Source: a virus
Virus record (IMG/VR): IMGVR_UViG_3300008050_000019
Strand: one strand, 5' to 3'
Length of the DNA stretch: 49,320 bases
Position 1 is the first letter of the stretch, and each line of letters starts with the position of its first letter. Below are positions 400 to 12,629 of the stretch, one piece after another. A program made the translations under genes and the position numbers. Below the pieces are notes generated by a model. The model was given only the letters and a program-made list of their open reading frames with translations, made no database searches and had not been told where the DNA came from.

Positions 400-488
400 A
401 GGAAGCGAAGGGATTCGAACCCCCAAAACGACTTGCATCGCCCTACTGGTTTTCAAAACCAGGCCCTCGTCCACCACGGACCGCTTCC
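400..488 (-). tRNA. tRNA-Ser (anticodon TGA), class II
   Basis: acceptor GGAAGCG/CGCTTCC, anticodon arm CTGGT-TTTGAAA-ACCAG, long variable arm, T arm GGGGG-TTCGAAT-CCCTT. Confidence 0.8.
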
Positions 489-531
489 ATTAAAATAATT
501 ATAACACGCATTTAAAAAAATGTACACGCAA

Positions 532-768
532 TCATTTTTTATATTTTATGATAACATTATATCCTGCTATAGAGATAAGTGACGCTATATTGAGTTCTAT
601 AGTTCTTGGTAATTCATCAATTGCAATGCAAGAAAGATATCTACTATCAGTAAAAGATAAAAAAATGATAGGGGTGAATAAGTGTTTTGCAAGCATAATA
701 TCACCAAACTTTAGATTCATAATATTATTTCTTGTAAAGGCTTGCATGCCATCATCTATCATGTTCAT
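532..768 (-). CDS. hypothetical protein (78 aa)
   Basis: ORF on cluster strand; opposite-strand ORF 548..790 looks less protein-like. Confidence 0.35.
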   Translation of the reverse strand: MNMIDDGMQAFTRNNIMNLKFGDIMLAKHLFTPIIFLSFTDSRYLSCIAIDELPRTIELNIASLISIAGYNVIIKYKK

Positions 769-840
769 GATTCATCACGCTCTTTTCTAGTATAGATTTT
801 ATATGAAAGTGTTGTTACATATATCCAAATATTCATTGCA

Positions 841-1083
841 TTAGAATGTTTTCTGGCTTATTCTTGCAAGTATTTTATGACCGATCAAAAAGCTTTTTGG
901 GAGATGTCCTATACCAGGTGATATCCACTTAAGATTTAAAAAAGCAAATTCTTTGTACGCATCATTGATATCATCATTTACAAACCCAAAAAAAACTAGC
1001 AAATTTTCGCTGTAACTTGTCTTAATAAGAATTATATCACCAATTGCCAACTCATTGAGGTTATCTTTGTCTATGATTTCCAT
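841..1083 (-). CDS. hypothetical protein (80 aa)
   Basis: six-frame ORF, cluster strand. Confidence 0.4.
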   Translation of the reverse strand: MEIIDKDNLNELAIGDIILIKTSYSENLLVFFGFVNDDINDAYKEFAFLNLKWISPGIGHLPKSFLIGHKILARISQKTF

Positions 1084-1086
1084 CTA

Positions 1087-1158
1087 TAGTGCTACCTGGT
1101 AACGCTCCAGGATTTCTGGTATGTCAAACCAGCGTTCATACTTCCCTACTATAGCACC
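1087..1158 (-). tRNA. tRNA-Val-like (anticodon GAC), non-canonical T loop AGCGTTA
   Basis: acceptor GGTGCTA/TAGCACT (G1-U72), anticodon arm CTGGT-TTGACAT-ACCAG, T arm CCTGG-AGCGTTA-CCAGG; near-identical copy at 7327..7398 differs only in anticodon arm. Confidence 0.5.
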
Positions 1159-1163
1159 AAAAT

Positions 1164-1236
1164 ACCCCCACCGAGAATCGAACTCGGGTCGCCGACGTGA
1201 AAAGCCAGTGTTCTAAACCACTAAACTATAGGGGCG
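1164..1236 (-). tRNA. tRNA-Glu (anticodon TTC)
   Basis: D arm GTTT/GAAC, anticodon loop TTTTCAC, T arm CCGAG-TTCGATT-CTCGG; G1-G72 acceptor mismatch. Confidence 0.65.
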
Positions 1237-1277
1237 TATTAAATATATTATAAATCAAGAAAAAACATTATTACATG

Positions 1278-1604
1278 CTAAAGATAACTTTCTTCGAATA
1301 AGATATCTTTATGGTTTGGACAGCGTGTACAAGAATAGTAGTTAACATGTATTAATTTACCATCGCCACCACAAATCTCACAAATTGAGCCAGATGCGTC
1401 TTCTGTACGGCAAATTAACTTAAACATTTGTGGCGTAACGCTTTTTGTGTAAAACCGCAACTCACCAAATTTTTCTTTTATTTGCGTTACGTTGCGGTTC
1501 CAGCCAAGTTTGTCTAGATCAATTATAAGCTGATCAATTATAGGCGTCCAACCTTCGCCAACGCCATAAGTATTATGGATCTTTATTCCGCTCTTATCTT
1601 TCAT
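1278..1604 (-). CDS. hypothetical protein with C-terminal CxxC...CxxC zinc-ribbon-like motif
   Basis: ORF 108 aa; CEICGG...CTRCPNH. Confidence 0.55.
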   Translation of the reverse strand: MKDKSGIKIHNTYGVGEGWTPIIDQLIIDLDKLGWNRNVTQIKEKFGELRFYTKSVTPQMFKLICRTEDASGSICEICGGDGKLIHVNYYSCTRCPNHKDILFEESYL

Positions 1605-1609
1605 TTAAA

Positions 1610-1681
1610 TTGTCCCTAGAGGACTCGAACCTCTAACGCCTGAACCAAAATCAAGTGTCTTGCCAATTAGACTAAGGGACA
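1610..1681 (-). tRNA. tRNA-Gln (anticodon TTG)
   Basis: U1-A72 acceptor TGTCCCT/AGGGACA, anticodon arm CTTGA-TTTTGGT-TCAGG, T arm AGAGG-TTCGAGT-CCTCT. Confidence 0.8.
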
Positions 1682-2092
1682 TTAATACTTTTTATTCGCG
1701 ATTGTTATATGGAAACATTTATAGTATTGCTTGGGTGGTAATGTCCATTTACTTCTAGGAAGCATGCCGAGACCAGCACGTAGCTCTGTGAGTCTATCAC
1801 ACCAAACATTAAGCCAATAATATACATTATCGAAATATACAGTCGGCTCATATTTAAATTGTACAATTTCATTATCAAATTCTCCCCAAGCTTTTAAGCA
1901 TAAAGGAGTTTCCTTAAATGGTCTTACAACTGTACAATGTGGGGGATATCTGGGCACTTGGCATTTCATATACTTTGGTATTAGTGCTCGATAATATCGC
2001 GCAATATCTTTATCTATTTCTAGATTAAGCTTTAACCCTTCATTTTGTCCAGAATATACCAACCTTCCAGTTGAAGTCAATAACTTTTTCAT
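1682..2092 (-). CDS. hypothetical protein (136 aa)
   Basis: six-frame ORF. Confidence 0.5.
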   Translation of the reverse strand: MKKLLTSTGRLVYSGQNEGLKLNLEIDKDIARYYRALIPKYMKCQVPRYPPHCTVVRPFKETPLCLKAWGEFDNEIVQFKYEPTVYFDNVYYWLNVWCDRLTELRAGLGMLPRSKWTLPPKQYYKCFHITIANKKY

Positions 2093-2096
2093 AAGA

Positions 2097-2168
2097 TGGG
2101 CCCAAAGAGAATCGAACTCTCATCATCTTGTATGTAAGACAAGCGCTTTACCGTTAAGCTATGTTCCC
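2097..2168 (-). tRNA. tRNA-Val (anticodon TAC)
   Basis: D arm GCTT/AAGC, anticodon arm CTTGT-CTTACAT-ACAAG, T loop TTCGATT; two A-G mismatches in acceptor. Confidence 0.6.
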
Positions 2169-3043
2169 TAATAAAACTCATTATTCTTTACATCGTTGTA
2201 AAGCCTTAAAGGAATCTTTGTTTTTTGTGTTTTCATGATTGGAGCATCTAGACTCCACCACCCTTTTTCGTAAACAGTCCCAAGTTGTAGAATAAATTTC
2301 TGGAGCTGTGCCTTCGACCCTCCGACAAATGCTTTATTCATAGCATTTCTAACAACAACCGCTGATCGGGCTGTTCCTGCTTGGCTTAGCGCTATATATA
2401 ATGCTTTTGTAGCTTTTACAAGATCATGTGCCCGTGGCTCAATTGTATACTGGGGTCTGGCAACAAGAACGCATGCAAAAACTTGTTCTTCTTCTATACC
2501 GAGTATTTTCAAAGCTATAATTGCAGAGTTTATCGTCTCGCCTGTTTGTAATGAATCATCGACAAGAACAATCGTTTTGCCGATATATTCTTCTGGGATG
2601 CGTTCCGACGTTGCGGTCATTATATCATCCGCTCGTTTTAAATAAGATTGCTTTTTCTTAATAGAGAGGTCCGACTTTATTGTTAAAATATCTGATGCGG
2701 TTCCGCCAAAGTCTTGCTCAAGGCGTTCGGCCAATGCATACCCCCATTTATTTTTACCTGTTGTCGAAGGAACGACAATCCATAATGGATCTTCACCCTT
2801 AAACAAAGAAAATGCATTTTTATTTTTATTATAAAGGGTCTCGAACACTTCATTTGACTGCAGCGTAGAAAGACCAGGATCATCTTTTTTTGCCTTTATA
2901 AAAGCATCAAACTGTGTCTCTGATGCTACCCCTGTAACAAGCCTGTCTTTTACAGATGAAAGCCTTGATACAGGGGCTTCTAAAATTAATGAAATAAACT
3001 CTTTTATTACACTAGTCATTGTAACTATTTGAAGATCGTCCAA
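2168..3043 (-). CDS. phosphoribosyltransferase (PRT type I) domain protein
   Basis: PRPP-binding motif TIVLVDDSLQTGET; 291 aa. Confidence 0.65.
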   Translation of the reverse strand: MDDLQIVTMTSVIKEFISLILEAPVSRLSSVKDRLVTGVASETQFDAFIKAKKDDPGLSTLQSNEVFETLYNKNKNAFSLFKGEDPLWIVVPSTTGKNKWGYALAERLEQDFGGTASDILTIKSDLSIKKKQSYLKRADDIMTATSERIPEEYIGKTIVLVDDSLQTGETINSAIIALKILGIEEEQVFACVLVARPQYTIEPRAHDLVKATKALYIALSQAGTARSAVVVRNAMNKAFVGGSKAQLQKFILQLGTVYEKGWWSLDAPIMKTQKTKIPLRLYNDVKNNEFY

Positions 3044-3575
3044 AGACCTTTTTTACGTATTTTTGTGTTTCTTCGAATGGCGGAACACCACCATGGCGCC
3101 TAACGTTTGTTGGGCCAGCATTATAAGCTGCAACCGCACTTCGCAAATCACCTGGAAACATCTTTATAAGCTTCTTTAAATATCTTGCTCCGCCGTCGAT
3201 ATTTTGTGCTGCATCCCAAGGGTCTTTAACACCTAGATACTCTGCAGTTTTTGGCATAAGCTGCATAACACCAATGGCACCCACGCCTGAATTGGCCGAG
3301 GGGTTGTATCTAGACTCAGTCCATGCCATTGCGTCAAGAATTGTGTATGGAACTTTATGCTTGATAGCAGCTTTCTTAATTAAGCTTGCAATGTCGGATT
3401 TGCTATATTCGATAGCTTGCTCTGCCTTAGGTTCCGCTGCAGAAGTATCCATGGGCCCAGATAAAGCTGCGACAGTTGCCAATCCTGCTGCGGCACGTTT
3501 TAATGGGCCTTCGTCAATTTTGCAATCCATTGACTCTTGAATCATCCCCTTGAGGTCTTTAATTGATATCTTCAT
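3012..3575 (-). CDS. lytic transglycosylase, SLT domain
   Basis: AMAWTESRYNPSANSGVGAIGVMQLMP catalytic-region motif; 32-nt overlap with downstream gene. Confidence 0.75.
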   Translation of the reverse strand: MKISIKDLKGMIQESMDCKIDEGPLKRAAAGLATVAALSGPMDTSAAEPKAEQAIEYSKSDIASLIKKAAIKHKVPYTILDAMAWTESRYNPSANSGVGAIGVMQLMPKTAEYLGVKDPWDAAQNIDGGARYLKKLIKMFPGDLRSAVAAYNAGPTNVRRHGGVPPFEETQKYVKKVFGRSSNSYND

Positions 3576-3671
3576 ATCTATATATATAAGCAGCTAACAG
3601 AATTTGCACCCATACTTTCAACTTGGCAAGCTGATATGCTACTGTTAAACATCATAGCTGCATTAATTTCA

Positions 3672-3743
3672 CATTTCTGAAGAGATTCGAACTCCCATTT
3701 CGACGTTCGTAGCGCCGCGCTCTATCCATTGAACTACAGAAAT
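3672..3743 (-). tRNA. tRNA-Arg (anticodon ACG)
   Basis: acceptor ATTTCTG/CAGAAAT, anticodon arm CGGCG-CTACGAA-CGTCG, T loop TTCGAAT. Confidence 0.8.
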
Positions 3744-3746
3744 AAA

Positions 3747-3818
3747 CACTCACAGAAAGACTCGAACTTTCACGATCAGTTTAGAAGACTGAGATGCTAT
3801 CCATTACATCATGCGAGC
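3747..3818 (-). tRNA. tRNA-Arg (anticodon TCT)
   Basis: acceptor GCTCGCA/TGTGAGT, anticodon arm TCAGT-CTTCTAA-ACTGA, T arm GAAAG-TTCGAGT-CTTTC. Confidence 0.8.
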
Positions 3819-3821
3819 ATA

Positions 3822-3895
3822 TGCCCTCGGCCGGGTTTGAACCGGCACTTTTTGGAATTTGAACCCAATGACTCTACCAGTTGGTCTACGAAGGC
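3822..3895 (-). tRNA. tRNA with Leu-type anticodon CAA but short (class I) variable arm, A73
   Basis: acceptor GCCTTCG/CGAGGGC, anticodon arm TTGGG-TTCAAAT-TCCAA, 5-nt variable loop, T arm GCCGG-TTCAAAC-CCGGC. Confidence 0.55.
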
Positions 3896-3898
3896 AAG

Positions 3899-3972
3899 TA
3901 CCCCTAGGCGGATTCGAACCGCCAACACTCAGATTTTAAATCTGATAACTCTACCAGTTGGTTTATAGGGGC
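3899..3972 (-). tRNA. tRNA with Leu-type anticodon TAA but class I architecture
   Basis: anticodon arm TCAGA-TTTAAAA-TCTGA, T arm GGCGG-TTCGAAT-CCGCC; paralog of 3822..3895. Confidence 0.55.
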
Positions 3973-4355
3973 GAAATTTGACTAACTTTTTTAAAACAAA
4001 TGCATGTATTATATCTTGATACAATTATATCAAATGCATTTGTATGTTGGTCAGTGCGTATTACAATTTCTCTTTGTATTGAAAGGTTTATATCATGAAA
4101 TATAGAGCCTGTAGCATAGAAATCAGAGTCATAGTAAGACTTATATACGCTTTTATGCTTAACAGAATAAACGCAGAGCGAGACATCTTCCGCTTCTGCG
4201 TGATCAACATATAGAACTATCATAGGCTCATCTTTCTTTATAAAATGTGTAATATAGTTTATATACTTCGGAATCTTACTTTGAACAAGCTCCATCTCTA
4301 ATTCTTGAATATCATCTTTAAGAATAACAAGATCACCAGGAATAAAATCATTCAT
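3963..4355 (-). CDS. hypothetical protein (130 aa)
   Basis: six-frame ORF. Confidence 0.5.
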   Translation of the reverse strand: MNDFIPGDLVILKDDIQELEMELVQSKIPKYINYITHFIKKDEPMIVLYVDHAEAEDVSLCVYSVKHKSVYKSYYDSDFYATGSIFHDINLSIQREIVIRTDQHTNAFDIIVSRYNTCICFKKVSQISPL

Positions 4356-4356
4356 A

Positions 4357-4431
4357 TGACACTGAAGGGATTCGAACCCATACTGTTCTGGTCCTAAACC
4401 AGATGCCTCCTACCGATTGGGCTACAGTGCC
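4357..4431 (-). tRNA. tRNA with Leu-type anticodon TAG, class I architecture
   Basis: acceptor GGCACTG/CAGTGTC, anticodon arm TCTGG-TTTAGGA-CCAGA, T loop TTCGAAT. Confidence 0.5.
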
Positions 4432-4436
4432 GAAAC

Positions 4437-4507
4437 AGGCCGCCAGGGACTCGAACCCTGATTAAAAGATTTGGAATCTTTTGTGTTACCAATTACACTA
4501 ACGTCCC
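4437..4507 (-). tRNA. tRNA-Trp (anticodon CCA)
   Basis: D arm GTGT/ACAC, anticodon arm AAAGA-TTCCAAA-TCTTT, T arm CAGGG-TTCGAGT-CCCTG; imperfect acceptor. Confidence 0.6.
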
Positions 4508-4661
4508 AGATGAATGCGGTATGATCTGACTTCGATACTCTTATGGGCATATGATCTCCATAAGGCTCTTTCTACGGTACTTTATAGGCTACCAGATTGC
4601 AGGCGTTGGAGTGAATCCTAGCATACAAAAATATAACCGCTAAGTTATACTACACATTCAA

Positions 4662-4735
4662 TGCTTTTGAGTGGACTCGAACCACCAAACACCAGACCCT
4701 CGACCTGGCCGCTTGACCGATTAGCGTACAAAAGC
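4662..4735 (-). tRNA. tRNA with Leu-type anticodon GAG, class I architecture, C33
   Basis: perfect acceptor GCTTTTG/CAAAAGC, anticodon arm CCAGG-TCGAGGG-TCTGG, T arm GGTGG-TTCGAGT-CCACT. Confidence 0.5.
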
Positions 4736-4748
4736 TCTATCATATTTA

Positions 4749-5174
4749 CTACAAGAAATCACAAGGTGGCGCAACATCTTCATGTCGGCAACCTAGCAAA
4801 TGCCCAAGTTCATGTCTTATGGTTTCTCGTTTTGCTTTATTCTGAATAAAAACTTGCCGAAAGATTATTTTTCTGTTGTGTCTTGTTATCATTATACAAC
4901 CATAATATCCACACCTTCGTGGGAGTGTGTTTACGAATGCTACCGGCACAAGATCATCACTGTCATTGCAAAAAGGAGAAATTTTAAAAACTTTTTCTTT
5001 CATCTTCCTATTCCAGAAAATAACTTCTTCTTCAAAAGGCTTAAGTTTCTTGCTTGGTATATCATCTATAAACAAGCATACTGGAAAAATTCCCCCTTCT
5101 CTTACTTTTAAGTCTATTACTGTTTTGCAACTTAATAATGAAATTATTACCAATGTTAACAATACTTTCTTCAT
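4749..5174 (-). CDS. metzincin-like zinc metallopeptidase, predicted lipoprotein
   Basis: HELGHLLGCRHE (HExxHxxGxxH); N-terminal signal MKKVLLTLVIISLLSC with lipobox-like LLSC. Confidence 0.6.
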   Translation of the reverse strand: MKKVLLTLVIISLLSCKTVIDLKVREGGIFPVCLFIDDIPSKKLKPFEEEVIFWNRKMKEKVFKISPFCNDSDDLVPVAFVNTLPRRCGYYGCIMITRHNRKIIFRQVFIQNKAKRETIRHELGHLLGCRHEDVAPPCDFL

Positions 5175-5202
5175 ACTACTAATTATAGTAGCTTAATCTA
5201 AA

Positions 5203-5275
5203 AGGGCAAAGCGAGACTTGAACTCGCGACCAATCGGTTAACAACCGACCGTTCTAACCACTGAACTATTCACCC
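5203..5275 (-). tRNA. tRNA-Asn (anticodon GTT)
   Basis: D arm GTTC/GAAC, anticodon arm GTCGG-TTGTTAA-CCGAT, T arm GCGAG-TTCAAGT-CTCGC. Confidence 0.8.
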
Positions 5276-5364
5276 GATCGAGGGGGAATTATTCCCCCTC
5301 TTTTGTTATCCTTGCTTAACCTTCATATTTCTTCCTCCGGAAAATAATATCTCTATTATTTAAG

Positions 5365-5439
5365 CCCCCCGTATGAGATTCGAACTCATGATCTCTGCGG
5401 TGACAACGCAACGTCCACTCCTGACTGGACCGACGGGGG
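5365..5439 (-). tRNA. tRNA-Asp (anticodon GTC)
   Basis: perfect acceptor CCCCCGT/ACGGGGG, anticodon arm TTGCG-TTGTCAC-CGCAG, T arm ATGAG-TTCGAAT-CTCAT. Confidence 0.8.
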
Positions 5440-5540
5440 AAATAAAATTTTATTTGGTCGATGGCCCGGCAATCGCGAGCTTGCCAGTTTGACCCCAAAG
5501 CAGAGTCCGGTAACAGCCTTATCTCTCTGGTGCACATCGA

Positions 5541-5615
5541 TCTAGACGGCAGGGCTTGAACCTGCAAAAAACCTGACACGGAATCAGGCGCCACACCAAA
5601 TTTGTGGTCGTCTAG
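5541..5615 (-). tRNA. tRNA-like, possibly Arg (anticodon CCG); atypical
   Basis: perfect acceptor CTAGACG/CGTCTAG, anticodon arm CCTGA-TTCCGTG-TCAGG (pyrimidine 37), T arm GCAGG-TTCAAGC-CCTGC, shifted D arm. Confidence 0.4.
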
Positions 5616-5626
5616 TTAAAATCAAC

Positions 5627-5700
5627 TCTGGGCAAAGGGATTCGAACCCCTGTTCTCACGGTCCCAAACCGCGTGTGATACCAAACTTCACCATACCCAG
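5627..5700 (-). tRNA. tRNA-Pro (anticodon TGG)
   Basis: acceptor CTGGGTA/TGCCCAG, anticodon arm CGCGG-TTTGGGA-CCGTG, T loop TTCGAAT. Confidence 0.8.
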
Positions 5701-5704
5701 TGAA

Positions 5705-5791
5705 TTTGAAGAGTGGGATTCGAACCGCACATTTCCGACCCTTCTCGGCCGTGAGACAGGATTGGCGTGTTACCGCTAACACTATCTTTAA
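5705..5791 (-). tRNA. degenerate tRNA-like element (class II length), anticodon not assignable
   Basis: TTCGAAT T-loop signature and D arm GTGT/ACAC present but T stem and anticodon stem do not pair cleanly. Confidence 0.3.
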
Positions 5792-5794
5792 TTA

Positions 5795-5873
5795 CCCGTA
5801 TAGCGGGATTTGAACCCACGTCTTCGCCACCCCTTAGAGGCCGAACGATGTTTTACCCTTAAACTACCAACGG
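5795..5873 (-). tRNA. degenerate tRNA-like element, anticodon not assignable
   Basis: T arm GTGGG-TTCAAAT-CCCGC and D arm GTTT/AAAC; acceptor with 2 mismatches, no clean anticodon stem. Confidence 0.3.
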
Positions 5874-5878
5874 ATAAA

Positions 5879-5961
5879 TGAATGAGGAGGGAGTTGAACC
5901 CCCAAAGACCGAAGCCGGGTCGTTTACAGCGACTTGATTTTACCAATAACCATACTCATCC
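5879..5961 (-). tRNA. tRNA-Tyr (anticodon GTA), class II
   Basis: acceptor GGATGAG/CTCATTC, anticodon loop CTGTAAA, variable-arm hairpin CCG-GCTT-CGG, T arm GGGGG-TTCAACT-CCCTC. Confidence 0.65.
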
Positions 5962-6079
5962 AAAAAAGTAAAGATAGGTCTTTCACCTATATCTTCCCCC
6001 TCATACGGGAGCTGTTCTATTTTAAACTACTTTACTACGCTTATAACATACATCATTACCACTATATGTTATAAACAAT

Positions 6080-6150
6080 TGCGGATCCCAGACTTGCACT
6101 GGGCCCTGTGGCTTATGAGGCCACCGAGGTACCTATATCCTCCAATCCGC
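6080..6150 (-). tRNA. tRNA-Met-like (anticodon CAT), non-canonical T loop TGCAAGT
   Basis: acceptor GCGGAT/ATCCGC, anticodon arm GTGGC-CTCATAA-GCCAC, T arm CCCAG-TGCAAGT-CTGGG. Confidence 0.5.
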
Positions 6151-6219
6151 GTCAATGGTTTTAATGAGATCCGAAAACTCCATATTGGTCCCGCCGATGA
6201 TTAAAAAAGCTAAACCCAC

Positions 6220-6591
6220 TCAGGAACTTGGAAAGATAACGCTTTCGACATATACCTTCAAAAAATCTGATTTATCATCGTTATCATAGCCCCCTCTCGG
6301 AAACCCAAAACTCCTTGATAAAAGATATTTCTTAGTAACTAGTCCTGGTTCAAACTGTCCCTCAAAACCATAACATGAACAGTGTCCACCCCGATTCAGG
6401 AACAATTTGTCTGTCTTTCTTTCTCTCAATACAAACCAAGATCCAGAATCACACCCCCAGGAACCTTCATGTTGGTATGCAATTAAAATTTTGAAGCGGT
6501 TAAGCTCTGCCAATGTAATATCATAATCTCCACAAATTTGTTCTTTTACTTCGTCTTTCGACATTCCTTCATAATCAGCTAACAATAACAT
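6220..6591 (-). CDS. hypothetical protein (123 aa) inside tRNA block
   Basis: six-frame ORF, protein-like composition. Confidence 0.5.
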   Translation of the reverse strand: MLLLADYEGMSKDEVKEQICGDYDITLAELNRFKILIAYQHEGSWGCDSGSWFVLRERKTDKLFLNRGGHCSCYGFEGQFEPGLVTKKYLLSRSFGFPRGGYDNDDKSDFLKVYVESVIFPSS

Positions 6592-6650
6592 AACAAACCC
6601 TCCGTATTATACAGAAATGCTTAGCGTTTGCTATATACTATTAACTAAAA

Positions 6651-6725
6651 TCCCCCCACCAGGACTCGAACCTGGAACCTCCGGCTTAAAAGGCCATTGC
6701 ACTAATCCAGTTGTGCTATGGAGGG
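6651..6725 (-). tRNA. tRNA-Lys (anticodon TTT)
   Basis: acceptor CCCTCCA/TGGGGGG, D arm GCAC/GTGC, anticodon loop CTTTTAA, T arm CCAGG-TTCGAGT-CCTGG. Confidence 0.7.
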
Positions 6726-6726
6726 T

Positions 6727-6799
6727 TTATAAGGGAAGAATTCGAATCTTCATTTCCCGCTTTAATCGTGCGGGTGTACTACCATTATACTACCTTATG
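6727..6799 (-). tRNA. tRNA-like with C1-A72 mismatch and 9-nt anticodon loop ACGATTAAA; identity ambiguous
   Basis: T arm GAAGA-TTCGAAT-TCTTC, D arm GTAT/GTAC, anticodon stem CCCGC/GCGGG around a 9-nt loop containing TTA. Confidence 0.4.
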
Positions 6800-6952
6800 G
6801 TTGTCATATGAAGAGTTTATACTTCAATTCCTCAATCCAAATGAGGCGCGATATTTTCACCAATATGACGATTTTAGATATTAACCTAGGCTATGAACCT
6901 ATATCCAATGCAACACTGCTATTGCAAAGGCCGGAATATATTTAATATCTAA

Positions 6953-7027
6953 TGGGATTACCGGGATTCGAACCCGGATCTGTCCGATTAAGAGTCGGCT
7001 ATATTAACACATTAATACTATAATCCC
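6953..7027 (-). tRNA. tRNA-Lys (anticodon CTT)
   Basis: perfect acceptor GGGATTA/TAATCCC, anticodon loop CTCTTAA, T arm CCGGG-TTCGAAT-CCCGG. Confidence 0.7.
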
Positions 7028-7078
7028 AATTTACATTTTATTCAATTTTCAAAGAAACAAATCACAAAATGATTTGAA

Positions 7079-7163
7079 TGAGGAACCTGAGGATCGAACT
7101 CAGTTGCACCCTAAGGCGACCAGGTTTACAGCCTGGGTTATCTCCATAATAATCTAGTTCCCC
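7079..7163 (-). tRNA. tRNA-Tyr (anticodon GTA), second diverged copy, class II
   Basis: acceptor GGGGAAC/GTTCCTC, anticodon arm CCAGG-CTGTAAA-CCTGG, long variable arm, T arm CTGAG-TTCGATC-CTCAG. Confidence 0.55.
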
Positions 7164-7252
7164 GTAATCATGAATGGCTTTAATCATCCAGTGTGTAGTT
7201 ATTATAACTCATTAGTTATCAAATTACAACATTTTTAAATTTTATTTTCATA

Positions 7253-7324
7253 AGATTGAGATGAGACTCGAACTCACAATCTTGGTTTTGCAGACCAAAG
7301 CCTTAACCATTTAGCTACTCAATC
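7253..7324 (-). tRNA. tRNA-Cys (anticodon GCA)
   Basis: perfect acceptor GATTGAG/CTCAATC, anticodon arm TTGGT-CTGCAAA-ACCAA, T arm GTGAG-TTCGAGT-CTCAT. Confidence 0.8.
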
Positions 7325-7326
7325 GA

Positions 7327-7398
7327 TGGTGCTACCTGGTAACGCTCCAGGATCTTCTGTTTATCAGACAGACGTTCATACTTCCCTACTATAGCACC
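7327..7398 (-). tRNA. tRNA-Ile-like (anticodon GAT), non-canonical T loop AGCGTTA
   Basis: same body as 1087..1158 (acceptor GGTGCTA/TAGCACC, T arm CCTGG-AGCGTTA-CCAGG) but anticodon arm TCTGT-CTGATAA-ACAGA. Confidence 0.5.
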
Positions 7399-7402
7399 AA
7401 AA

Positions 7403-7474
7403 CGCTTTTTAGTGGATTCGAACCACTACATCTGGTACTTCACACCAGCATGCTACCGTTAACATCAAAAAAGC
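7403..7474 (-). tRNA. tRNA-Phe (anticodon GAA)
   Basis: perfect acceptor GCTTTTT/AAAAAGC, D arm ATGT/GCAT, anticodon arm CTGGT-GTGAAGT-ACCAG, T arm AGTGG-TTCGAAT-CCACT. Confidence 0.8.
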
Positions 7475-7724
7475 ATAAATCCTATTACAACTAACTAGCC
7501 TTTTGGGCCTGTAATTGGCACCCGTTCTCTCAGCGGGTGTTATATTAACGAATGTTAATACATCCTCTAGCCAGCAGCTTAATTAAAAGCAGGATATTTC
7601 TCGCAATCAAGGTCTAGCGATGGTTTCGACCCATCTTCTGCACCCACTGCAGGTGTGCCGTAATACTTCTATACGAGCTAGACTTATTTCTTTTATATTT
7701 TCTTCCAATTTTTATGTAACATTA

Positions 7725-7793
7725 TGGAGAAGACGGGTAACGCTCCCGCTCATTCCGGTGTGCAAAACCAGATGCTATCCTTATAGCTTCCCC
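7725..7793 (-). tRNA. tRNA-Ala-like (anticodon TGC), short D arm, T loop AGCGTTA
   Basis: acceptor GGGGAAG/CTTCTCC, anticodon arm CTGGT-TTTGCAC-ACCGG, T arm GCGGG-AGCGTTA-CCCGT. Confidence 0.5.
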
Positions 7794-7797
7794 AATA

Positions 7798-7871
7798 AGC
7801 AAGTAAGGGGATTCGAACCCCTACATCAAGAGTGGAAATCTTGCATGCTATCCATTAAACATCATACTCGC
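7798..7871 (-). tRNA. tRNA-Gly (anticodon TCC)
   Basis: acceptor GCGAGTA/TACTTGC, D arm ATGT/GCAT, anticodon arm CAAGA-TTTCCAC-TCTTG, T arm AGGGG-TTCGAAT-CCCCT, U73. Confidence 0.8.
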
Positions 7872-7968
7872 ATACTCGATTTTGTTTTAACCTCATCATG
7901 TTAAATAATTATATAACATTTTTTTTCATTTAACACTTAATTTAAAACAAAATTGAAATTCTTATTCT

Positions 7969-8154
7969 TTAATCAGCAAACTTGTGAATGTTCCCACCCA
8001 CCTTCGTAACCATATTCTGAATGAACTCAGCACGCCCCAGAGCCCGCCAAGCAATTTTTAGTTCATCATCAATACGCTGGGTTGCATCCTTGATGGTTTC
8101 CTTTAACTTTCTAAAAGACTCTTCCATCTCTTGGTCAGTTTGATCATTACTCAT
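7969..8154 (-). CDS. hypothetical small protein (61 aa)
   Basis: six-frame ORF between tRNA genes. Confidence 0.35.
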   Translation of the reverse strand: MSNDQTDQEMEESFRKLKETIKDATQRIDDELKIAWRALGRAEFIQNMVTKVGGNIHKFAD

Positions 8155-8201
8155 AATTTATTTTATCACCTATAATATCCAATGACATATTTTATTTTTA
8201 A

Positions 8202-8288
8202 CGGAAGGCAGAAGGATTGAACTCCATCCACTTTTAAGAACCCACTGATTAGCAAACAGCGACCAGAACCAATCTGGTATTACCTTCC
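8202..8288 (-). tRNA. tRNA-Ser (anticodon GCT), class II
   Basis: acceptor GGAAGGT/GCCTTCC, D arm CCAG-ATTGGTT-CTGG, anticodon loop TTGCTAA, long variable arm. Confidence 0.65.
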
Positions 8289-8293
8289 AAAAG

Positions 8294-8407
8294 TTACGTT
8301 ACCAGGAGTCGAACCTGGCTTGTCAACCAGACACCAGATGAAAACATCTTGAATGGATTCGAACCACTATTACTCGCGCGCAGAGTATATACCGACTTAC
8401 TAACGTA
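8294..8407 (-). tRNA. irregular or nested tRNA-like locus (two T-arm signatures inside one perfect 7-bp acceptor pairing)
   Basis: TACGTTA (8401..8407) pairs perfectly with TAACGTA next to T arm CCAGG-TTCGACT-CCTGG (8302..8318); a second T arm AGTGG-TTCGAAT-CCATT lies between. Confidence 0.3.
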
Positions 8408-8413
8408 ACCAGA

Positions 8414-8486
8414 GGTACTCGAAGGGGATTGAACCCTCATCGTTCGGACCACAGCCGAAAGCTCTAACCATTGAGCTACGAGCACC
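8414..8486 (-). tRNA. tRNA-His (anticodon GTG) with genome-encoded G-1
   Basis: acceptor GTGCTCG/CGAGTAC preceded by G, D arm GCTC/GAGC, anticodon arm TTCGG-CTGTGGT-CCGAA, T arm GAGGG-TTCAATC-CCCTT. Confidence 0.8.
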
Positions 8487-8491
8487 ATAAA

Positions 8492-8563
8492 AGCCTGCGA
8501 GAGGAATTCAACCCCCATTTCTTGATTACAAAACAAGAGTAATAAGCATTATACTACACAGGC
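8492..8563 (-). tRNA. tRNA-Thr (anticodon TGT)
   Basis: acceptor GCCTGTG/CGCAGGC, anticodon loop TTTGTAA, T loop TTGAATT (G56). Confidence 0.6.
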
Positions 8564-9550: not shown

Positions 9551-11136
9551 ATTTTAATTTCTTCATCTACCCAATGGGCGAAATCTATGTAGTTTTTGAA
9601 ATCAATCGGTTGACCATCATGCGTTTCACCAGACGTCAAATGCCCATCATAAATTTTATTATATAGATTATTATAATACGCAATAGCCCCAGCTGCCTCT
9701 GCGATCATCTCTGATGTTGCGATCGCAGAGATATTACCATCCCAATCATCATCTTGCATGAACGCGGCGTCTTGTAACACACCTGCTGTACGTTTTACGA
9801 AGTCCTCATATGCATCAGGACTAAGCTGTTTTTGTAGCGCTTTAATATACTTGAATAAATTGTCTGTGTTGCCTTTGTATATCCATTTAAAATATGCTTC
9901 TGGAACGAGCTCTGGAGAAGACATGACACGTTTCAGTATTTTAATCGATAATACCGGGTTGTCATCCCAATTCCTGGCATACCCATCCAAAAATCCCTTC
10001 GCAATTGACTCATTCCCACTATCAAATATTTGATTTTGTTGTTGTTTTGTTACACCATTTTCTTCTGACGCATATCTTGCTATGAAATAGTTAACTCCTT
10101 CATCATTCGCTGCAAGCGCTGCCTCTATTAAATCATTAGTGTATTTAAATCCCTCTCCATATTCGAATACGCGTAGCGCGGTAGCCGCGGATCTTACTCT
10201 GCCTGAGTTTATTAGATCAGTGACGAGTGGCCCAGTGATACTCACGGGCTCGTCATACAGCATGTCACTGATATGAGCATGCAATGTTTCATCGCTTGTT
10301 TCATTAAAAAGCTTTTCTCTGATTTCTGATGGCGTATTCGGATTTTCGAGTAGCACCGTCTGACAAGTTTTATCATTCGCATACTTTTTAATGAGTTCCT
10401 GATCATCAGTTTTTGACAAAGTATATAACAACATTTCTCCCGAACTCATGCAGTCTTCGTGAATGACTTTTATAACATCATCACCCACCATATTCTCGAG
10501 TATATCGGCGCTAAATGTAGCATCCGTTGCATCAAAATTCTGTTGTGTGAAAGGTTTAACTTCCGTGCGCACCATTGCGACTGCTATCTTATGGTACTTA
10601 TCATCTTTATCTTTTGATTTATCGATAATAAAGTAAAACTTCACCCCTCTCTTAACATATGAAGCAAAATAATTATGAGACTGAGTAGCAGCGATACACC
10701 ACTTTGTCCCCCTACCATAATAACATGACGCTTCCTTTGTCGTAACTCTCAAGACGACTATGCTTCCCTGTGCATATATTACCTGAGCACCACTCTTGGC
10801 AAGTTTTTTGTCTTCGCCTTTTGAAGTTCCGAGAATTTCAAAAGCATTTCGCAAATCGGCCAGCGTAGCATATGAATTTATATCTTTAACTTGCAGTCTT
10901 TGCTTTTCTTTTTCAAATTTCTTTATTAAGTTGACAATTTCTGCAACAGGTTCATCATTAATTGCTTGTTTTAGCATCCAGTCAAGATACTTTTTTGTAG
11001 GTGACGGGTCTGCAATAGCTAATCTATCAATTATTTTAATATGGTCAGGATACTTAACTTTTAAGTCATCAATCCTACCTTCCGAAAGAAGTGTTTTTGC
11101 TAAAACTTCTTTAATAAGCCTTTTGATATTGTCCAT
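9532..11136 (-). CDS. hypothetical large protein (534 aa)
   Basis: long ORF with even composition; no recognised motif. Confidence 0.65.
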   Translation of the reverse strand: MDNIKRLIKEVLAKTLLSEGRIDDLKVKYPDHIKIIDRLAIADPSPTKKYLDWMLKQAINDEPVAEIVNLIKKFEKEKQRLQVKDINSYATLADLRNAFEILGTSKGEDKKLAKSGAQVIYAQGSIVVLRVTTKEASCYYGRGTKWCIAATQSHNYFASYVKRGVKFYFIIDKSKDKDDKYHKIAVAMVRTEVKPFTQQNFDATDATFSADILENMVGDDVIKVIHEDCMSSGEMLLYTLSKTDDQELIKKYANDKTCQTVLLENPNTPSEIREKLFNETSDETLHAHISDMLYDEPVSITGPLVTDLINSGRVRSAATALRVFEYGEGFKYTNDLIEAALAANDEGVNYFIARYASEENGVTKQQQNQIFDSGNESIAKGFLDGYARNWDDNPVLSIKILKRVMSSPELVPEAYFKWIYKGNTDNLFKYIKALQKQLSPDAYEDFVKRTAGVLQDAAFMQDDDWDGNISAIATSEMIAEAAGAIAYYNNLYNKIYDGHLTSGETHDGQPIDFKNYIDFAHWVDEEIKIWESFV

Positions 11137-11196: not shown

Positions 11197-12078
11197 ATGT
11201 TTAATCGTAAGAACACTCAGAGAAGAAATATAGCATTGATAATGTGTTTGTTCACATTCAGTATTGCATGCAGTAATGTACCAAACTGCGCTAGCATTAA
11301 TATTGCCCCACAAATCGCCGCAGTTCATGACACAAAAAATCTCCCCTTCAATTCTTTTGTCACTGTCAGAAGTAAGACTTTTGAGCGGACATGCACACCA
11401 TCGTTGGCGTTAACAAGCACAGCAGCAGATGTATGCCCGATAAATATTAGAATAGCTTCTGCATCTGGTGTCGTGATTTACAAATCAATACATGATACTG
11501 GCGTTGCATACGTCCTAACAGCAAAGCATATGTGTAATACCAAGCAAGAGATTAAAGGAGACGTAATAAACCATCAATTTGTAATTAAAGATTTCAACTA
11601 TGATTCGTATGAAGCGCTATCATTTGTAAAGTCTGATGCATCGGATTCTTGTATATTGATATTTGCGCACTCGCCCGATTGGATGCAGCCAGTTGAAATC
11701 ACAGAAACTGAACCATCACTTGGTGAGCGTGTATTTAATTTAGCAGCGCCAGAAAGTATGTCTGCGAAACAAACGATGATGGTCTTTGAAGGGTTCTACT
11801 CAGGTATATATGAAGACTACCATATATTTACTCTGCCGGCGTCACAAGGGTCATCTGGTTCACCGATTTTCAATAAAGAAAATCAACTTGTTGGAATGAT
11901 TTTTGCCGTTCCAACAAGTTTAAAAGACGAAAGACTGGGCGACAGTTCAACAAGAGTTACTAAACAAACTATGGAAAATTTAGCATATGCTGTAGGCATC
12001 GATGATATCAAAGCGCTTGTTACCGTACTAGTAGACGTCGATGCTAATATAGACATCGGCAGCATAGAAAAGAATTAA
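11197..12078 (+). CDS. secreted trypsin-like (S1) serine protease, predicted lipoprotein
   Basis: His motif VLTAKHM, Ser motif GSSGSPIF, N-terminal signal ending FSIAC. Confidence 0.75.
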   Translation: MFNRKNTQRRNIALIMCLFTFSIACSNVPNCASINIAPQIAAVHDTKNLPFNSFVTVRSKTFERTCTPSLALTSTAADVCPINIRIASASGVVIYKSIHDTGVAYVLTAKHMCNTKQEIKGDVINHQFVIKDFNYDSYEALSFVKSDASDSCILIFAHSPDWMQPVEITETEPSLGERVFNLAAPESMSAKQTMMVFEGFYSGIYEDYHIFTLPASQGSSGSPIFNKENQLVGMIFAVPTSLKDERLGDSSTRVTKQTMENLAYAVGIDDIKALVTVLVDVDANIDIGSIEKN

Positions 12079-12629
12079 CGTCTACCCAATACCCTCTTTT
12101 GATATTTCTTCATCTTCCGAAGCAGAATATCACGCTTCACCCTCGAAAGTCTATCAAAAAATAGCTTGCCATCCAAATGATCAATTTCATGTTGTAAGCA
12201 GCATGAAAGCAGGCCAAAAGCTTCAACCTCAATATTTTCGCCATTCTCATTTAAGCCCTGAACTTTAATATACGTTGAACGCTCAACCTTACCTGATTGT
12301 CCAGGGACCGACATACAACGCTCAGTCCATATAGATGAGCCTCGGGATTCAACAAGCTTCGGGTTTACGATTGCCAAGCGTCCATGGCTCTTGACGTTGC
12401 TGGTGTCTTCACCATCAGCATCAAGAGGCTCAACATCAACGACAATGACACGCTCAGTCCTTCCAACTTGTGTCGCAGCGAGGCCAATTGAGCCGTGTTG
12501 ATCAATAGTATGAAACATATCTTCGATCAGTTTTCGTGTACTGTCATTAACAACCCCTACTGCCTGTGACGGTACGCGAAGTAATTTATTAGGAGCTTTA
12601 ATAACATGAAGCAATGTAGGATTATTCAT
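12075..12629 (-). CDS. def: peptide deformylase
   Basis: GLAATQVG, CMSVPG and HEIDHLDG motifs; convergent 4-nt overlap with protease gene. Confidence 0.85.
   Translation of the reverse strand: MNNPTLLHVIKAPNKLLRVPSQAVGVVNDSTRKLIEDMFHTIDQHGSIGLAATQVGRTERVIVVDVEPLDADGEDTSNVKSHGRLAIVNPKLVESRGSSIWTERCMSVPGQSGKVERSTYIKVQGLNENGENIEVEAFGLLSCCLQHEIDHLDGKLFFDRLSRVKRDILLRKMKKYQKRVLGRR

Follow-up and report, generated by a model that had tools for sequence, protein, structure and literature searches.

The window, a 49,320-nt stretch of viral DNA, carries on its minus strand a dense array of tRNA genes. Three of them, for Val, Ile and Ala, share the T loop AGCGTTA. They are listed here together with the array and its other odd members.

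400..8563, minus strand: tRNA array, about 33-35 tRNA or tRNA-like genes, no encoded CCA
1087..1158, minus strand: tRNA-Val(GAC), 71 nt plus A73; ARAGORN, Rfam and class model R1
7327..7398, minus strand: tRNA-Ile(GAU), 71 nt plus A73; ARAGORN, Rfam and class model R1
7725..7793, minus strand: tRNA-Ala(UGC), 68 nt plus A73; class model R1 and fold
5966..6036, minus strand: tRNA-like gene; Rfam tRNA 34.8 bits, R1 23.3 bits
6079..6151, minus strand: initiator-like tRNA(CAU) with a C1xA72 mismatch; ARAGORN
7612..7683, minus strand: previously undetected tRNA-like gene between Phe and Ala; R1 alone, 30.9 bits, E 1.4e-6
8492..8563, minus strand: tRNA-Thr(UGU); ARAGORN, Rfam 51.5 bits

The array is interspersed with small ORFs, a phosphoribosyltransferase gene (2168-3043) and an SLT lytic transglycosylase gene (3012-3575). 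The first-pass annotation had placed and spelled the Val, Ile and Ala genes correctly. In all three, the acceptor stem has 7 bp and the anticodon and T stems 5 bp each, both with 7-nt loops, and the anticodon loop carries U33 and R37; these stems are all perfect in the Val and Ile genes. Spacers of 0-4 nt separate the three from canonical tRNAs of the same strand.

In tRNA-Val(GAC), which lies 3 nt downstream of tRNA-Glu(UUC) (1163-1235), the anticodon arm CTGGT-TTGACAT-ACCAG occupies 1116-1132 (anticodon 1123-1125), the D loop GGAAGTAT 1138-1145 and the T loop AGCGTTA 1100-1106; it has G1:U72, and CCA is not encoded. The body of tRNA-Ile(GAU) is that of tRNA-Val(GAC), D loop GGAAGTAT included, and holds the arm TCTGT-CTGATAA-ACAGA at 7356-7372 (anticodon 7363-7365; T loop 7340-7346). 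This sole Ile(GAU) gene of the array lies 2-3 nt from tRNA-Phe (7402-7475) and abuts tRNA-Cys (7253-7324); spacers this short, 0-3 nt, require its co-transcription with both.

The third gene, also noted in the first pass as having the AGCGTTA loop, is the only Ala tRNA of the array and sits 4 nt downstream of tRNA-Gly (7798-7871). Its acceptor stem, GGGGAAG/CTTCTCC, contains G3:U70. Without an 8-9 linker, the miniature D arm CTAT-AAGG-ATAG (4-bp stem, 4-nt loop) abuts the acceptor stem and is followed by a 3-nt connector. The anticodon lies at 7762-7764 and the T arm reads GCGGG-AGCGTTA-CCCGT, with its loop at 7738-7744. The cloverleaf is the minimum-free-energy fold. At three other loci (L075, L085, L107) lie homologs that share this architecture and G3:U70, and all four stems show compensatory changes among them.

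All three T arms follow the pattern NNNGG-AGCGTTA-CCNNN. The 11-mer GGAGCGTTACC occurs three times in the window, at 1098-1108, 7338-7348 and 7736-7746, against a chance expectation of 0.35 from shuffles; none of 100 shuffles held three or more copies. Covariance-model scoring, which the first pass had suggested, gave 36.6 bits for Val and 42.7 bits for Ile with the Rfam tRNA model, low scores that nevertheless exceed its gathering score of 29 bits. The Ala gene was not called by ARAGORN, nor reported by Rfam at E<=1. Class model R1, whose training alignment excluded the three genes, scored them as the best three matches of the window: Ile at 60.5 bits (E 4.8e-15), Val at 54.4 bits (E 2.7e-13) and Ala at 31.7 bits (E 8e-7), with canonical tRNAs at 30 bits or less. 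A canonical T loop in another register can be set aside: no TTC is present in the 3′ halves, and R1 and ARAGORN agree in placing AGCGTTA as the T loop.

Identity elements, judged by the established E. coli rules, match the anticodons: G3:U70 and A73 in Ala, A73 and class-type anticodon loops in Val and Ile. The loop TTGACAT of the Val gene is that of the class Val tRNAs at loci L070 and L082, and CTGATAA or TTGATAA, as in the Ile gene, is found in 18 of 20 class Ile tRNAs.

The Val/Ile pair and its anticodon arms

The Val and Ile genes had been described as one scaffold with a replaced anticodon arm, and their alignment bears this out. Identity extends from a TTTT leader (-4) into the 3′ trailer (about +8) except at 11 positions, namely 27, 28, 29, 32, 36, 38, 41, 42, 43, 45 and 72. 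Ten of these fall within a 19-nt segment made of the anticodon arm and variable loop (binomial P about 1.4e-5). At pairs 27-43, 28-42 and 29-41 both sides have changed with pairing preserved. Such pairs are rare: the sample holds 2 among 10,040 intra-locus pairs. Phe(GAA) is found on related scaffolds at loci L013 and L009; the Val(GAC), Ile(GAU) and Phe(GAA) anticodons differ only in nucleotide 36.

Remolding of tRNA genes, or anticodon shift, in which duplication is followed by a change of identity, is known from mitochondrial and bacterial cases. The present pair resembles it in the one body common to Val(GAC) and Ile(GAU), but differs in having exchanged three stem pairs and positions 32 and 38, beyond nucleotide 36. 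Most probably, one scaffold was duplicated and its whole anticodon arm then replaced or re-tuned. The exchange would be workable, as the anticodon and A73 are what ValRS and IleRS mainly read, the body being neutral to both.

The D arms are unusual too, a point absent from the first-pass annotation. In the Val and Ile genes, only G10-C25 and U11-A24 of the D stem are Watson-Crick pairs, A12xA23 and G13xG22 are mismatched, and position 14 is G instead of A14. Their cloverleaf lies 2-4 kcal/mol above the minimum-free-energy fold. With this and the weak D stem, the two copies could be decaying.

Elbow covariation and the spread of the class

T54-Psi55 and G18 are near-universal in tRNAs. The Val, Ile and Ala genes carry A54 G55 C56 and A18 G19 in their place, so that only the 19:56 pair is canonical. 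The replacement of T54/Psi55 by A54/G55, and the altered contact between T and D loops that was predicted from it, are thus both present; the contact is compensated and not lost, with A18 for G18 and A17, A60 and U58 accompanying A54.

This follows from covariation in larger samples. Positions 18 and 55 are G/U in 246 tRNAs, A/G in 31, G/G in 2 and A/U in 1 (Fisher 1e-37), and have the top mutual information among all pairs of D-loop and T-loop positions. U55 goes with a D-loop GG in 1077 of 1110 tRNAs, and G55 with AG and no GG in 92 of 104. Positions 54 and 58 are U-A 1088 times, A-U 95 times, A-A 26 times and U-U once; A17 stands alongside A54 in 65-68% of cases, compared with 12% for canonical loops. 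A control sample chosen by its canonical T arm independently replicates the covariation: AG alone was found in 7 of 7 G55 tRNAs, and U58 in 15 of 16 A54 tRNAs. In the class, G18:U55 has become A18:G55, and U54:A58 with Y60 and Y17 has become A54:U58 with A60 and usually A17.

A54:U58 cannot be isosteric with the reverse-Hoogsteen pair U54:A58.

Intermediate elbows exist: TGCRAAT (18:55 alone), ATCGTTA (the 54/58/60 module alone), ATCGAAA and 19:56 swaps. In an unbiased sample of phage arrays, re-wired elbows make up about 4% of tRNAs. The window itself holds further unusual D and T loops. The initiator-like tRNA(CAU) has the D loop ATATAGGTA and the T loop TGCAAGT, in which U54 is retained next to G55; only the A18:G55 change is present. 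The gene at 5966..6036, with T loop TGAAAGA, D loop AAAATA and anticodon loop CGTATGA (UAU, G33), reads as A18:G55 plus U19:A56. The D loop AATGCTTA and T loop TTGAATT of tRNA-Thr(UGU) show G19:C56 swapped to C19:G56. The gene at 7612..7683 has D loop AGAAGTA, T loop GTCGAAA and anticodon loop CTGCAGT (possibly GCA).

The AGCGTTA T loop was found on more than 100 viral contigs, in tRNAs of more than 20 anticodons. The T-arm 17-mer occurs at 23 viral loci, about 14 of them tRNAs, and the pattern GGAGCGTTACC-N11-CCA at no fewer than 120 viral loci, nearly all of the matches listed being tRNA-like. A strict cloverleaf test left 81 unique class genes with 26 anticodons. The motif itself served to gather this sample, and the set behind the stem statistics, in which 20 of 21 pairs change on both sides and 97% of cells are paired, had been pre-filtered for pairing. 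All 40 of 40 aligned members have A18 and G19. The heptamer and G52G53/C61C62 do not vary across more than 20 identities, on contigs widely diverse in sequence and base composition.

The invariance of AGCGTTA is stricter than structure alone demands.

As far as sequence can tell, the identity elements of the class fit bacterial rules. Position 73 is C in His (5 of 5), U in Gly and Cys, G in Asn, Trp, Gln and Asp, and A in Ile, Val, Lys, Tyr and most Phe; class Ala tRNAs have G3:U70 and class Tyr tRNAs a long variable arm. Among the carriers of the class loop are also initiator-like CAU tRNAs, which have the C1xA72 mismatch. Only 3 of 91 members share their anticodon with a canonical tRNA of the same locus, compared with 13% redundancy among canonical tRNAs, and Ile(GAU) is enriched about tenfold.

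In a scan of bacterial genomes with one T-arm variant, only 5 of the 120 matches listed were tRNA-like, all on metagenome-bin contigs with dense, phage-like tRNA arrays. In 0.87 Mb of bacterial loci, 35 of 35 tRNAs had canonical T loops, and the class was not seen in the sampled isolate-genome loci. Within the reach of this single variant and the matches listed, the class occurs almost only in phage DNA. We found no description of it in the searchable literature.

Relation to known tRNAs

With canonical bacterial and phage elongator tRNAs (RF00005; T5 and T4-like arrays) the class shares the cloverleaf, the sizes of the acceptor, anticodon and T stems and of the T loop, U33, R37 and bacterial identity elements, and it keeps G19:C56, G53:C61 and R57; dense arrays among small ORFs are likewise typical of T5 and T4-like phages. 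It differs in A54 G55 U58 U59 A60 for T54 Psi55 A58 N59 Y60, and in A17-A18 for Y17-G18. No class tRNA was found in T5 or Aeromonas phage 31.

Eukaryotic initiator tRNA and some tRNA-Ala have an A54/A58 T loop of the AUCGAAA type (PMC7912444, PMC7566577). A54 and A60 occur together there as in the class, and the exact ATCGAAA is present on some phage tRNAs of the same arrays. That type, however, keeps U55/G18 and A58 where class tRNAs have G55, A18 and U58, and the class setting is bacterial-type, phage-encoded and of elongator identities. For the genes of the window, a T loop of the eukaryotic initiator type is ruled out by U58, G55 and A18.

Metazoan mitochondrial tRNAs are similar in their lost GG/T-Psi-C signature, small D loops (4 nt in our Ala gene) and poor detection by tools. 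Class tRNAs, by contrast, keep a D/T contact that covaries, along with a full-size, G+C-rich T arm, and their loop sequence shows strict conservation in place of erosion. Mitochondrial-type loss of the interaction is ruled out by the covariation of 18:55, 19:56 and the 17/54/58/60 module.

Phage tRNAs resist tRNA-targeting defence nucleases through changes of the anticodon loop or arm, and resistance to P2-OLD was transferred by exchanging the anticodon arm on a constant body (PMC10264068, PMC12445682, PMC11555353). There too a phage tRNA differs from that of the host at otherwise conserved positions, and the Val/Ile exchange is of the same kind. Those changes, however, concern the anticodon arm of one isoacceptor, whereas the class concerns the elbow of all identities. 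We know of no nuclease that would select for the class elbow.

A probable compensated elbow and its alternatives

On the likeliest reading, the Val, Ile and Ala genes of this novel jumbo phage are true tRNA genes, with the class elbow built from different, matched nucleotides. We put at roughly 0.75 the probability that they encode genuine, working tRNAs with a compensated alternative elbow, in the absence of expression, charging or structural data.

A neutral origin is unlikely but keeps some weight: phage tRNAs act briefly and would not need elbow modifications, so equivalent elbows could arise by compensatory mutation without adaptive meaning and spread via duplication, anticodon remolding and gene exchange. 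The many intermediate forms, the low frequency of re-wired elbows in the unbiased sample and the failure to find a partner gene are all in keeping with it. It does not readily account for the invariance of AGCGTTA and G52G53/C61C62 over so many identities and divergent contigs, for the Ile(GAU) enrichment, or for a class unseen in sampled isolate-genome loci.

A non-decoding role appears improbable. Such tRNA-like molecules could be decoys for tRNA-targeting nucleases or modification enzymes, or carry a mark by which a phage-encoded tRNA-depleting factor distinguishes phage from host tRNAs. It is known that phage tRNAs, by changes of their own sequence, can rescue infection from tRNA nucleases (PMC10264068, PMC12445682, PMC11555353), and an altered elbow would make a uniform, anticodon-independent mark. 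Yet the identity elements, U33/R37 and non-redundant anticodons indicate ordinary decoding and speak against a pure decoy; a self-mark could coexist with decoding, though nothing supports it directly, and the window yielded no recognisable gene for a partner enzyme or nuclease.

Still less probable is that duplication and recombination in a fast-evolving array left the Val and Ile copies, or the whole trio, as non-functional relics: the degenerate D stem with G14, the low or missing Rfam scores, the non-cloverleaf minimum-energy fold of Val and Ile and the failure to find a close relative of this phage in which to test conservation would suit it, but it conflicts with the perfect acceptor, anticodon and T stems, the three compensatory pairs distinguishing the two anticodon stems, anticodon loops matching class Val and Ile tRNAs elsewhere, the obligatory co-transcription of Ile with Phe and Cys, the covarying stems of the Ala homologs, and the position of the three genes as sole source of Ile(GAU), Val(GAC) and Ala in an array whose other genes account for the remaining 18 amino acids. 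Array spacing, non-redundant slots and homologous genes make relic status unlikely for Val and Ile; the weak D stem prevents its full exclusion.

If the three are working tRNAs with a compensated elbow, the L shape and the flat G19:C56 face, the surface used by the ribosome, RNase P, EF-Tu and the CCA-adding enzyme, would survive the change. With that face intact, we infer that the tRNAs would be processed from a polycistronic transcript of the array, be given CCA by the host enzyme and charged by host ValRS, IleRS and AlaRS, and read the codons that the phage uses most for Val, Ile and Ala (GTT+GTC are 58% of Val, ATT+ATC 70% of Ile, and GCA is the top Ala codon). Without U54, U55 and G18, they could not acquire m5U54 (TrmA), Psi55 (TruB) or Gm18 (TrmH), and would presumably also escape factors that read the canonical T-loop sequence. 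Escape from a host factor directed at the T loop or elbow is our leading guess for the selective reason; it has not been shown, and we hold it at less than even odds. Standard tRNA finders often miss members of the class (ARAGORN detects 26 of 81, Rfam 11 of 21), and the AGCGTTA elbow is not private to the paralogs of the window but marks a large phage tRNA class that spans all identities.

Three AGCGTTA tRNAs in a dense array

A dense tRNA array occupies positions 400-8563 of the minus strand. ARAGORN recovers 26 genes there, Rfam six more and the class-specific covariance model another two; none encodes its CCA. Three of them, found where the first-pass annotation had placed them, have a T arm of the form NNNGG-AGCGTTA-CCNNN:

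1087-1158, minus strand, tRNA-Val(GAC)
7327-7398, minus strand, tRNA-Ile(GAU)
7725-7793, minus strand, tRNA-Ala(UGC)

The pattern GGAGCGTTACC is present three times in the window against 0.35 expected, and no shuffle attains three. A canonical loop in another register would have refuted the annotation, but no register yields a TTC-type loop. Scored with R1, a covariance model of the class trained on forty gapless 70-nt members with the window genes left out, the three genes are the top window matches (Ile 60.5, Val 54.4 and Ala 31.7 bits). Several points speak for function. The genes lie 0-4 nt from canonical tRNA genes, in the orders Glu-Val, Phe-Ile-Cys and Gly-Ala, from which co-transcription with these neighbours is inferred. 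The codons that they read are the ones preferred by the phage, and without the Ala and Ile genes the array, which with them spans all 20 amino acids, would be incomplete.

The Ala gene, the third tRNA for which the loop had been claimed, indeed carries it, along with G3:U70 and A73. It escapes ARAGORN as well as Rfam, the latter even at E<=1. Homologs in three sampled loci (L075, L085 and L107) share its unusual architecture, in which the acceptor stem, with G3:U70, leads into a 4-bp D stem capped by an AAGR tetraloop, and a 3-nt connector follows. Covariation among these Ala genes extends to all four stems; MAFFT misplaced the 5' end in the set of four homologs, and the pairs were taken by hand reading.

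The Val and Ile genes were thought to be one scaffold with exchanged anticodon arms, and alignment bears this out. They are identical from 4 bases upstream to about 8 bases downstream, except at positions 27, 28, 29, 32, 36, 38, 41, 42, 43, 45 and 72. Ten of these 11 differences fall within 19 nt (P ~1.4e-5), and three stem pairs are changed on both sides from Val to Ile (C-G to U-A, U-A to C-G and G-C to U-A). Of the 10,040 pairs of differing anticodon compared within the loci of our sample, only 2 combine the same body with a different anticodon arm, this one and Arg(CCG)/Arg(CCT) of L107 (862-933 and 3930-4001), whose bodies are 92-96% and whose anticodon arms are 53% identical. In its anticodon stem, TCTGT/ACAGA, Ile exactly matches a class Phe(GAA) tRNA in loci L009 and L015, and the anticodons on related scaffolds (GAA, GAU and GAC) vary at nucleotide 36 alone.

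The likeliest history of the pair is a duplication with a shift of identity, the anticodon arm being either re-tuned or exchanged. This fits the reliance of ValRS and IleRS on the anticodon and A73, known from E. coli. By inference, it also fits the idea of an 'extended anticodon', in which the stem, together with positions 32 and 38, is fitted to the anticodon. The nearest relative of the scaffold that we found, a Phe(GAA) tRNA in locus L013, has a perfect D stem, and compensatory changes at 10-25 and 11-24 set it apart; because the window scaffold has, against it, a weak D stem and G14, the two copies may be sub-optimal or decaying. The pair remains a clean natural instance of two anticodon arms on one tRNA body, of use for 'extended anticodon' studies and for the design of orthogonal tRNAs.

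The window, from a jumbo-type phage, has a G+C content of 42% and matches none of 50,697 phage records at the DNA level. Most of its ORFs are orphans; one, of 534 aa, resembles proteins of PA5oct-like Pseudomonas jumbo phages at only ~30% identity. Recognised proteins are limited to one with an SLT domain and three others:

2168-3043, minus strand, phosphoribosyltransferase, within the tRNA array
11197-12078, plus strand, trypsin-like protease
12075-12629, minus strand, peptide deformylase (Pfam E 2e-44)

A Pfam and PHROGs scan of 66 ORFs yielded no tRNA-related partner enzyme. A search for close relatives of the phage with a 22-mer from the D arm found no viral or metagenome contig, no tRNA array accompanies the relatives of the SLT protein at their loci, and for the 534-aa protein no record was found.

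A compensated elbow

The three genes belong to a class of phage tRNAs in which the AGCGTTA loop (A54, G55, U58 and A60) is joined to a D loop with A18-G19. Few nucleotides in biology are as well conserved as T54, Psi55 and G18, on which tRNA finders rely by design. In 1,223 unique ARAGORN tRNAs from viral loci carrying the class, the T-loop change is compensated in the D loop. With U55 the D loop has GG (1077/1110); with G55 it has AG and no GG (92/104). Within 7-nt D loops, the 18/55 combinations are G/U (246), A/G (31), G/G (2) and A/U (1; Fisher 1e-37), and 18:55 has the highest mutual information of all D-loop by T-loop pairs. Positions 54/58 are U-A in 1088 cases, A-U in 95, A-A in 26 and U-U in one; A54 is accompanied by A60, and in 65-68% by A17, versus 12%. 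The two modules are separable: TGCRAAT loops have changed 18:55 alone and ATCGTTA loops the 54/58/60 module alone, while AGCGTTA combines both. G19:C56 is retained, or swapped as a Watson-Crick pair.

An independent control of 117 loci selected by a canonical T arm (562 tRNAs) replicates these rules: 7/7 tRNAs with G55 have AG only, and 15 of the 16 with A54 have U58. Re-wired elbows amount there to ~4%. AGCGTTA is absent from all 562 control tRNAs, and the double variant is therefore a rare extreme. The class replaces T54, Psi55 and G18 by matched partners, recurrently and in nature, a ready-made double-mutant experiment on elbow construction.

Other genes of the window array are unusual as well:

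5795-5873, minus strand, 79-nt tRNA-like gene, Rfam alone (37.2 bits), possible CTA anticodon context (CTCTAAG)
5966-6036, minus strand, tRNA-like gene (Rfam 34.8 bits)
6079-6151, minus strand, initiator-like tRNA(CAU) with a C1xA72 mismatch, G55 (TGCAAGT) and D loop ATATAGGTA
6727-6799, minus strand, Asn(ATT) according to ARAGORN, 9-nt anticodon loop ACGATTAAA on stems CCCGC/GCGGG, decoding unclear
6802-6869, minus strand, second Pro(UGG), tRNA-like, Rfam alone (36.3 bits)
6953-7027, minus strand, canonical-looking Lys(CUU), Rfam 55.8 bits, undetected by ARAGORN
7612-7683, minus strand, tRNA-like gene, class covariance model alone (30.9 bits)
8203-8288, minus strand, Ser(GCU)-like tRNA with a long arm, undetected by ARAGORN
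8492-8563, minus strand, tRNA-Thr(UGU), T loop TTGAATT, D loop AATGCTTA

The Thr gene has the elbow pair in swapped form, C19:G56 for G19:C56. The gene at 5966-6036 combines T loop TGAAAGA with D loop AAAATA, and we read these as A18:G55 with U19:A56; its anticodon loop, CGTATGA (UAU), has G33 in place of U33, and it may decode AUA, 30% of the Ile codons of the window. At 7612-7683, D loop AGAAGTA and T loop GTCGAAA stand with anticodon loop CTGCAGT (perhaps GCA) and discriminator C; this may be a second, non-canonical Cys-type tRNA. The second Pro gene has AT-rich D and T loops without GG and TTC signatures.

Extent and distribution of the class

The 17-mer CCTGGAGCGTTACCAGG matched 23 viral contigs, about 14 of them at tRNA genes that differ in identity (Tyr, Phe, Met, Ile and others) and as a rule encode their CCA. 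The pattern GGAGCGTTACC-N11-CCA extends the class to at least 120 loci, tRNA-like in nearly all of those listed. Among the matches listed, 81 unique genes with 26 anticodons pass a strict cloverleaf test that gave no false positives in ~170 chance occurrences in bacterial DNA. An earlier, looser test (6/7 acceptor pairs at any offset) had many false positives in coding DNA, passing 51 of the 120 genome matches listed, of which 5 were genuine.

Members carry bacterial identity elements fitting their anticodon: C73 in His (5/5), U73 in Gly and Cys, G73 in Asn, Trp, Gln and Asp, A73 in Ile and Val, G3:U70 in Ala and a long variable arm in Tyr. Initiator-like CAU tRNAs with C1xA72 also carry the loop. 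D loops are identity-specific (Ile AAAAGTA, Lys TAAAGTG, Trp ACAAGAA), and the window Val and Ile genes share their anticodon loops, TTGACAT and CTGATAA, with class members of the same identity. One contig, L001, has six AGCGTTA-loop tRNAs on differing T stems. In the forty gapless 70-nt members, a set pre-filtered for pairing, 97% of the cells are paired and 20 of 21 pairs show both-sided change. A same-anticodon canonical tRNA stands alongside a class member in only 3 of 91 cases, versus 13% redundancy among canonical tRNAs. For the class as a whole we rejected a recent radiation of a single ancestor, because D loops, discriminator bases and acceptor stems are family-specific. The invariance of AGCGTTA and a tenfold enrichment of Ile(GAU) in the class are unexplained.

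In bacteria (one genome per species), the same 17-mer is mostly a coding motif (LERYQ) of Pseudomonas and Streptomyces among the matches listed. Five of the 120 loci listed are tRNA-like, all on metagenome-bin contigs whose dense arrays abound in G55 loops; in the other bacterial loci (0.87 Mb), 35 of 35 tRNAs have canonical loops. One 'Verrucomicrobiales' metagenome-bin contig (L214, CAYGQD010000084, 25.9 kb) has G55 T loops in ~11 of 16 array genes (TGCAAAT, TGCGACT and AGCGTTA, with AG-type D loops), an almost complete re-wired set; it is probably a mis-binned phage or prophage. Separately, a group I intron lies within the phage tRNA array of locus L024 (926-1123, minus strand; Rfam 56.9 bits, above the gathering score).

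Three cultured phages have copies for which their GenBank records give no annotation:

L270, Pelagibacter phage HTVC008M, NC_020484:91140-91213, Gly-ACC with the AGCGTTA loop
L272, Vibrio phage CHOED, NC_023863: ~56556-56640, Tyr-GUA with the AGCGTTA loop
L271, Pseudomonas phage ventosus, MG018930: ~9870-9945, degenerate AGCGTTA copy, Pro-UGG-like, with two acceptor mismatches and a Lys-type body

In Xanthomonas phage X1, ATCGTTA loops occur on tRNAs for Ile and Lys. No class tRNA was found in T5, checked as a possible model system, or in Aeromonas phage 31.

ARAGORN finds 26 of the 81 strict members (32%), and Rfam at its gathering score 11 of 21 (52%, at 39-55 bits). Phage tRNA inventories are hence under-counted, the sole Ala tRNA of the window being among those overlooked, and estimates of codon compensation, recoding and the completeness of phage tRNA sets are affected.

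Possible roles of the alternative elbow

Our literature search returned no description of the loop sequence, of a T-loop or elbow variant in phage tRNAs, or of A18 with G55 or A54 with U58 in any tRNA; reviews of the T loop and elbow mention A54:A58 solely for eukaryotic initiator and Ala tRNAs. With subscription journals outside its scope, a prior description is possible, and a compensated, phage-restricted alternative elbow is only apparently new.

That the elbow preserves the L shape, and that it confers some gain on phages, is inferred only. So is the lack of m5U54, Psi55 and Gm18, deduced from the absence of the substrate bases. Avoidance of restriction sites (TCGA or TTCGAA in the canonical loop) as a driver at the DNA level was judged insufficient by reasoning alone, because the common variant TTCAAAT avoids the sites without re-wiring the elbow.

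We tentatively propose, at a probability of roughly 0.3, that phages keep a parallel, near-complete tRNA set with an 'orthogonal' elbow, competent on the ribosome and invisible to host readers of the T-Psi-C/GG elbow. A17-A18 of the D loop and the AGCGUUA T loop would form this elbow. Modification enzymes, and possibly defence or decay nucleases directed at the elbow or T loop, would be blind to it; it might also serve as a self mark on phage tRNAs, read by a phage factor that depletes those of the host. Known phage tRNA countermeasures work through the anticodon arm (PMC10264068, PMC12445682), and the T-arm backbone is contacted by Cas12a3 (PMC12851939). As far as the literature search shows, no factor is known that would select for the AGCGTTA loop.

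The confinement of the class to phage-like DNA, among the matches listed, raises the question of whether the elbow, beside the anticodon arm, is a target of phage-host conflict. If the proposal is true, the elbow would open a new axis of this conflict over tRNA, independent of the anticodon, and would offer the design of orthogonal tRNAs a natural module that can be transferred.
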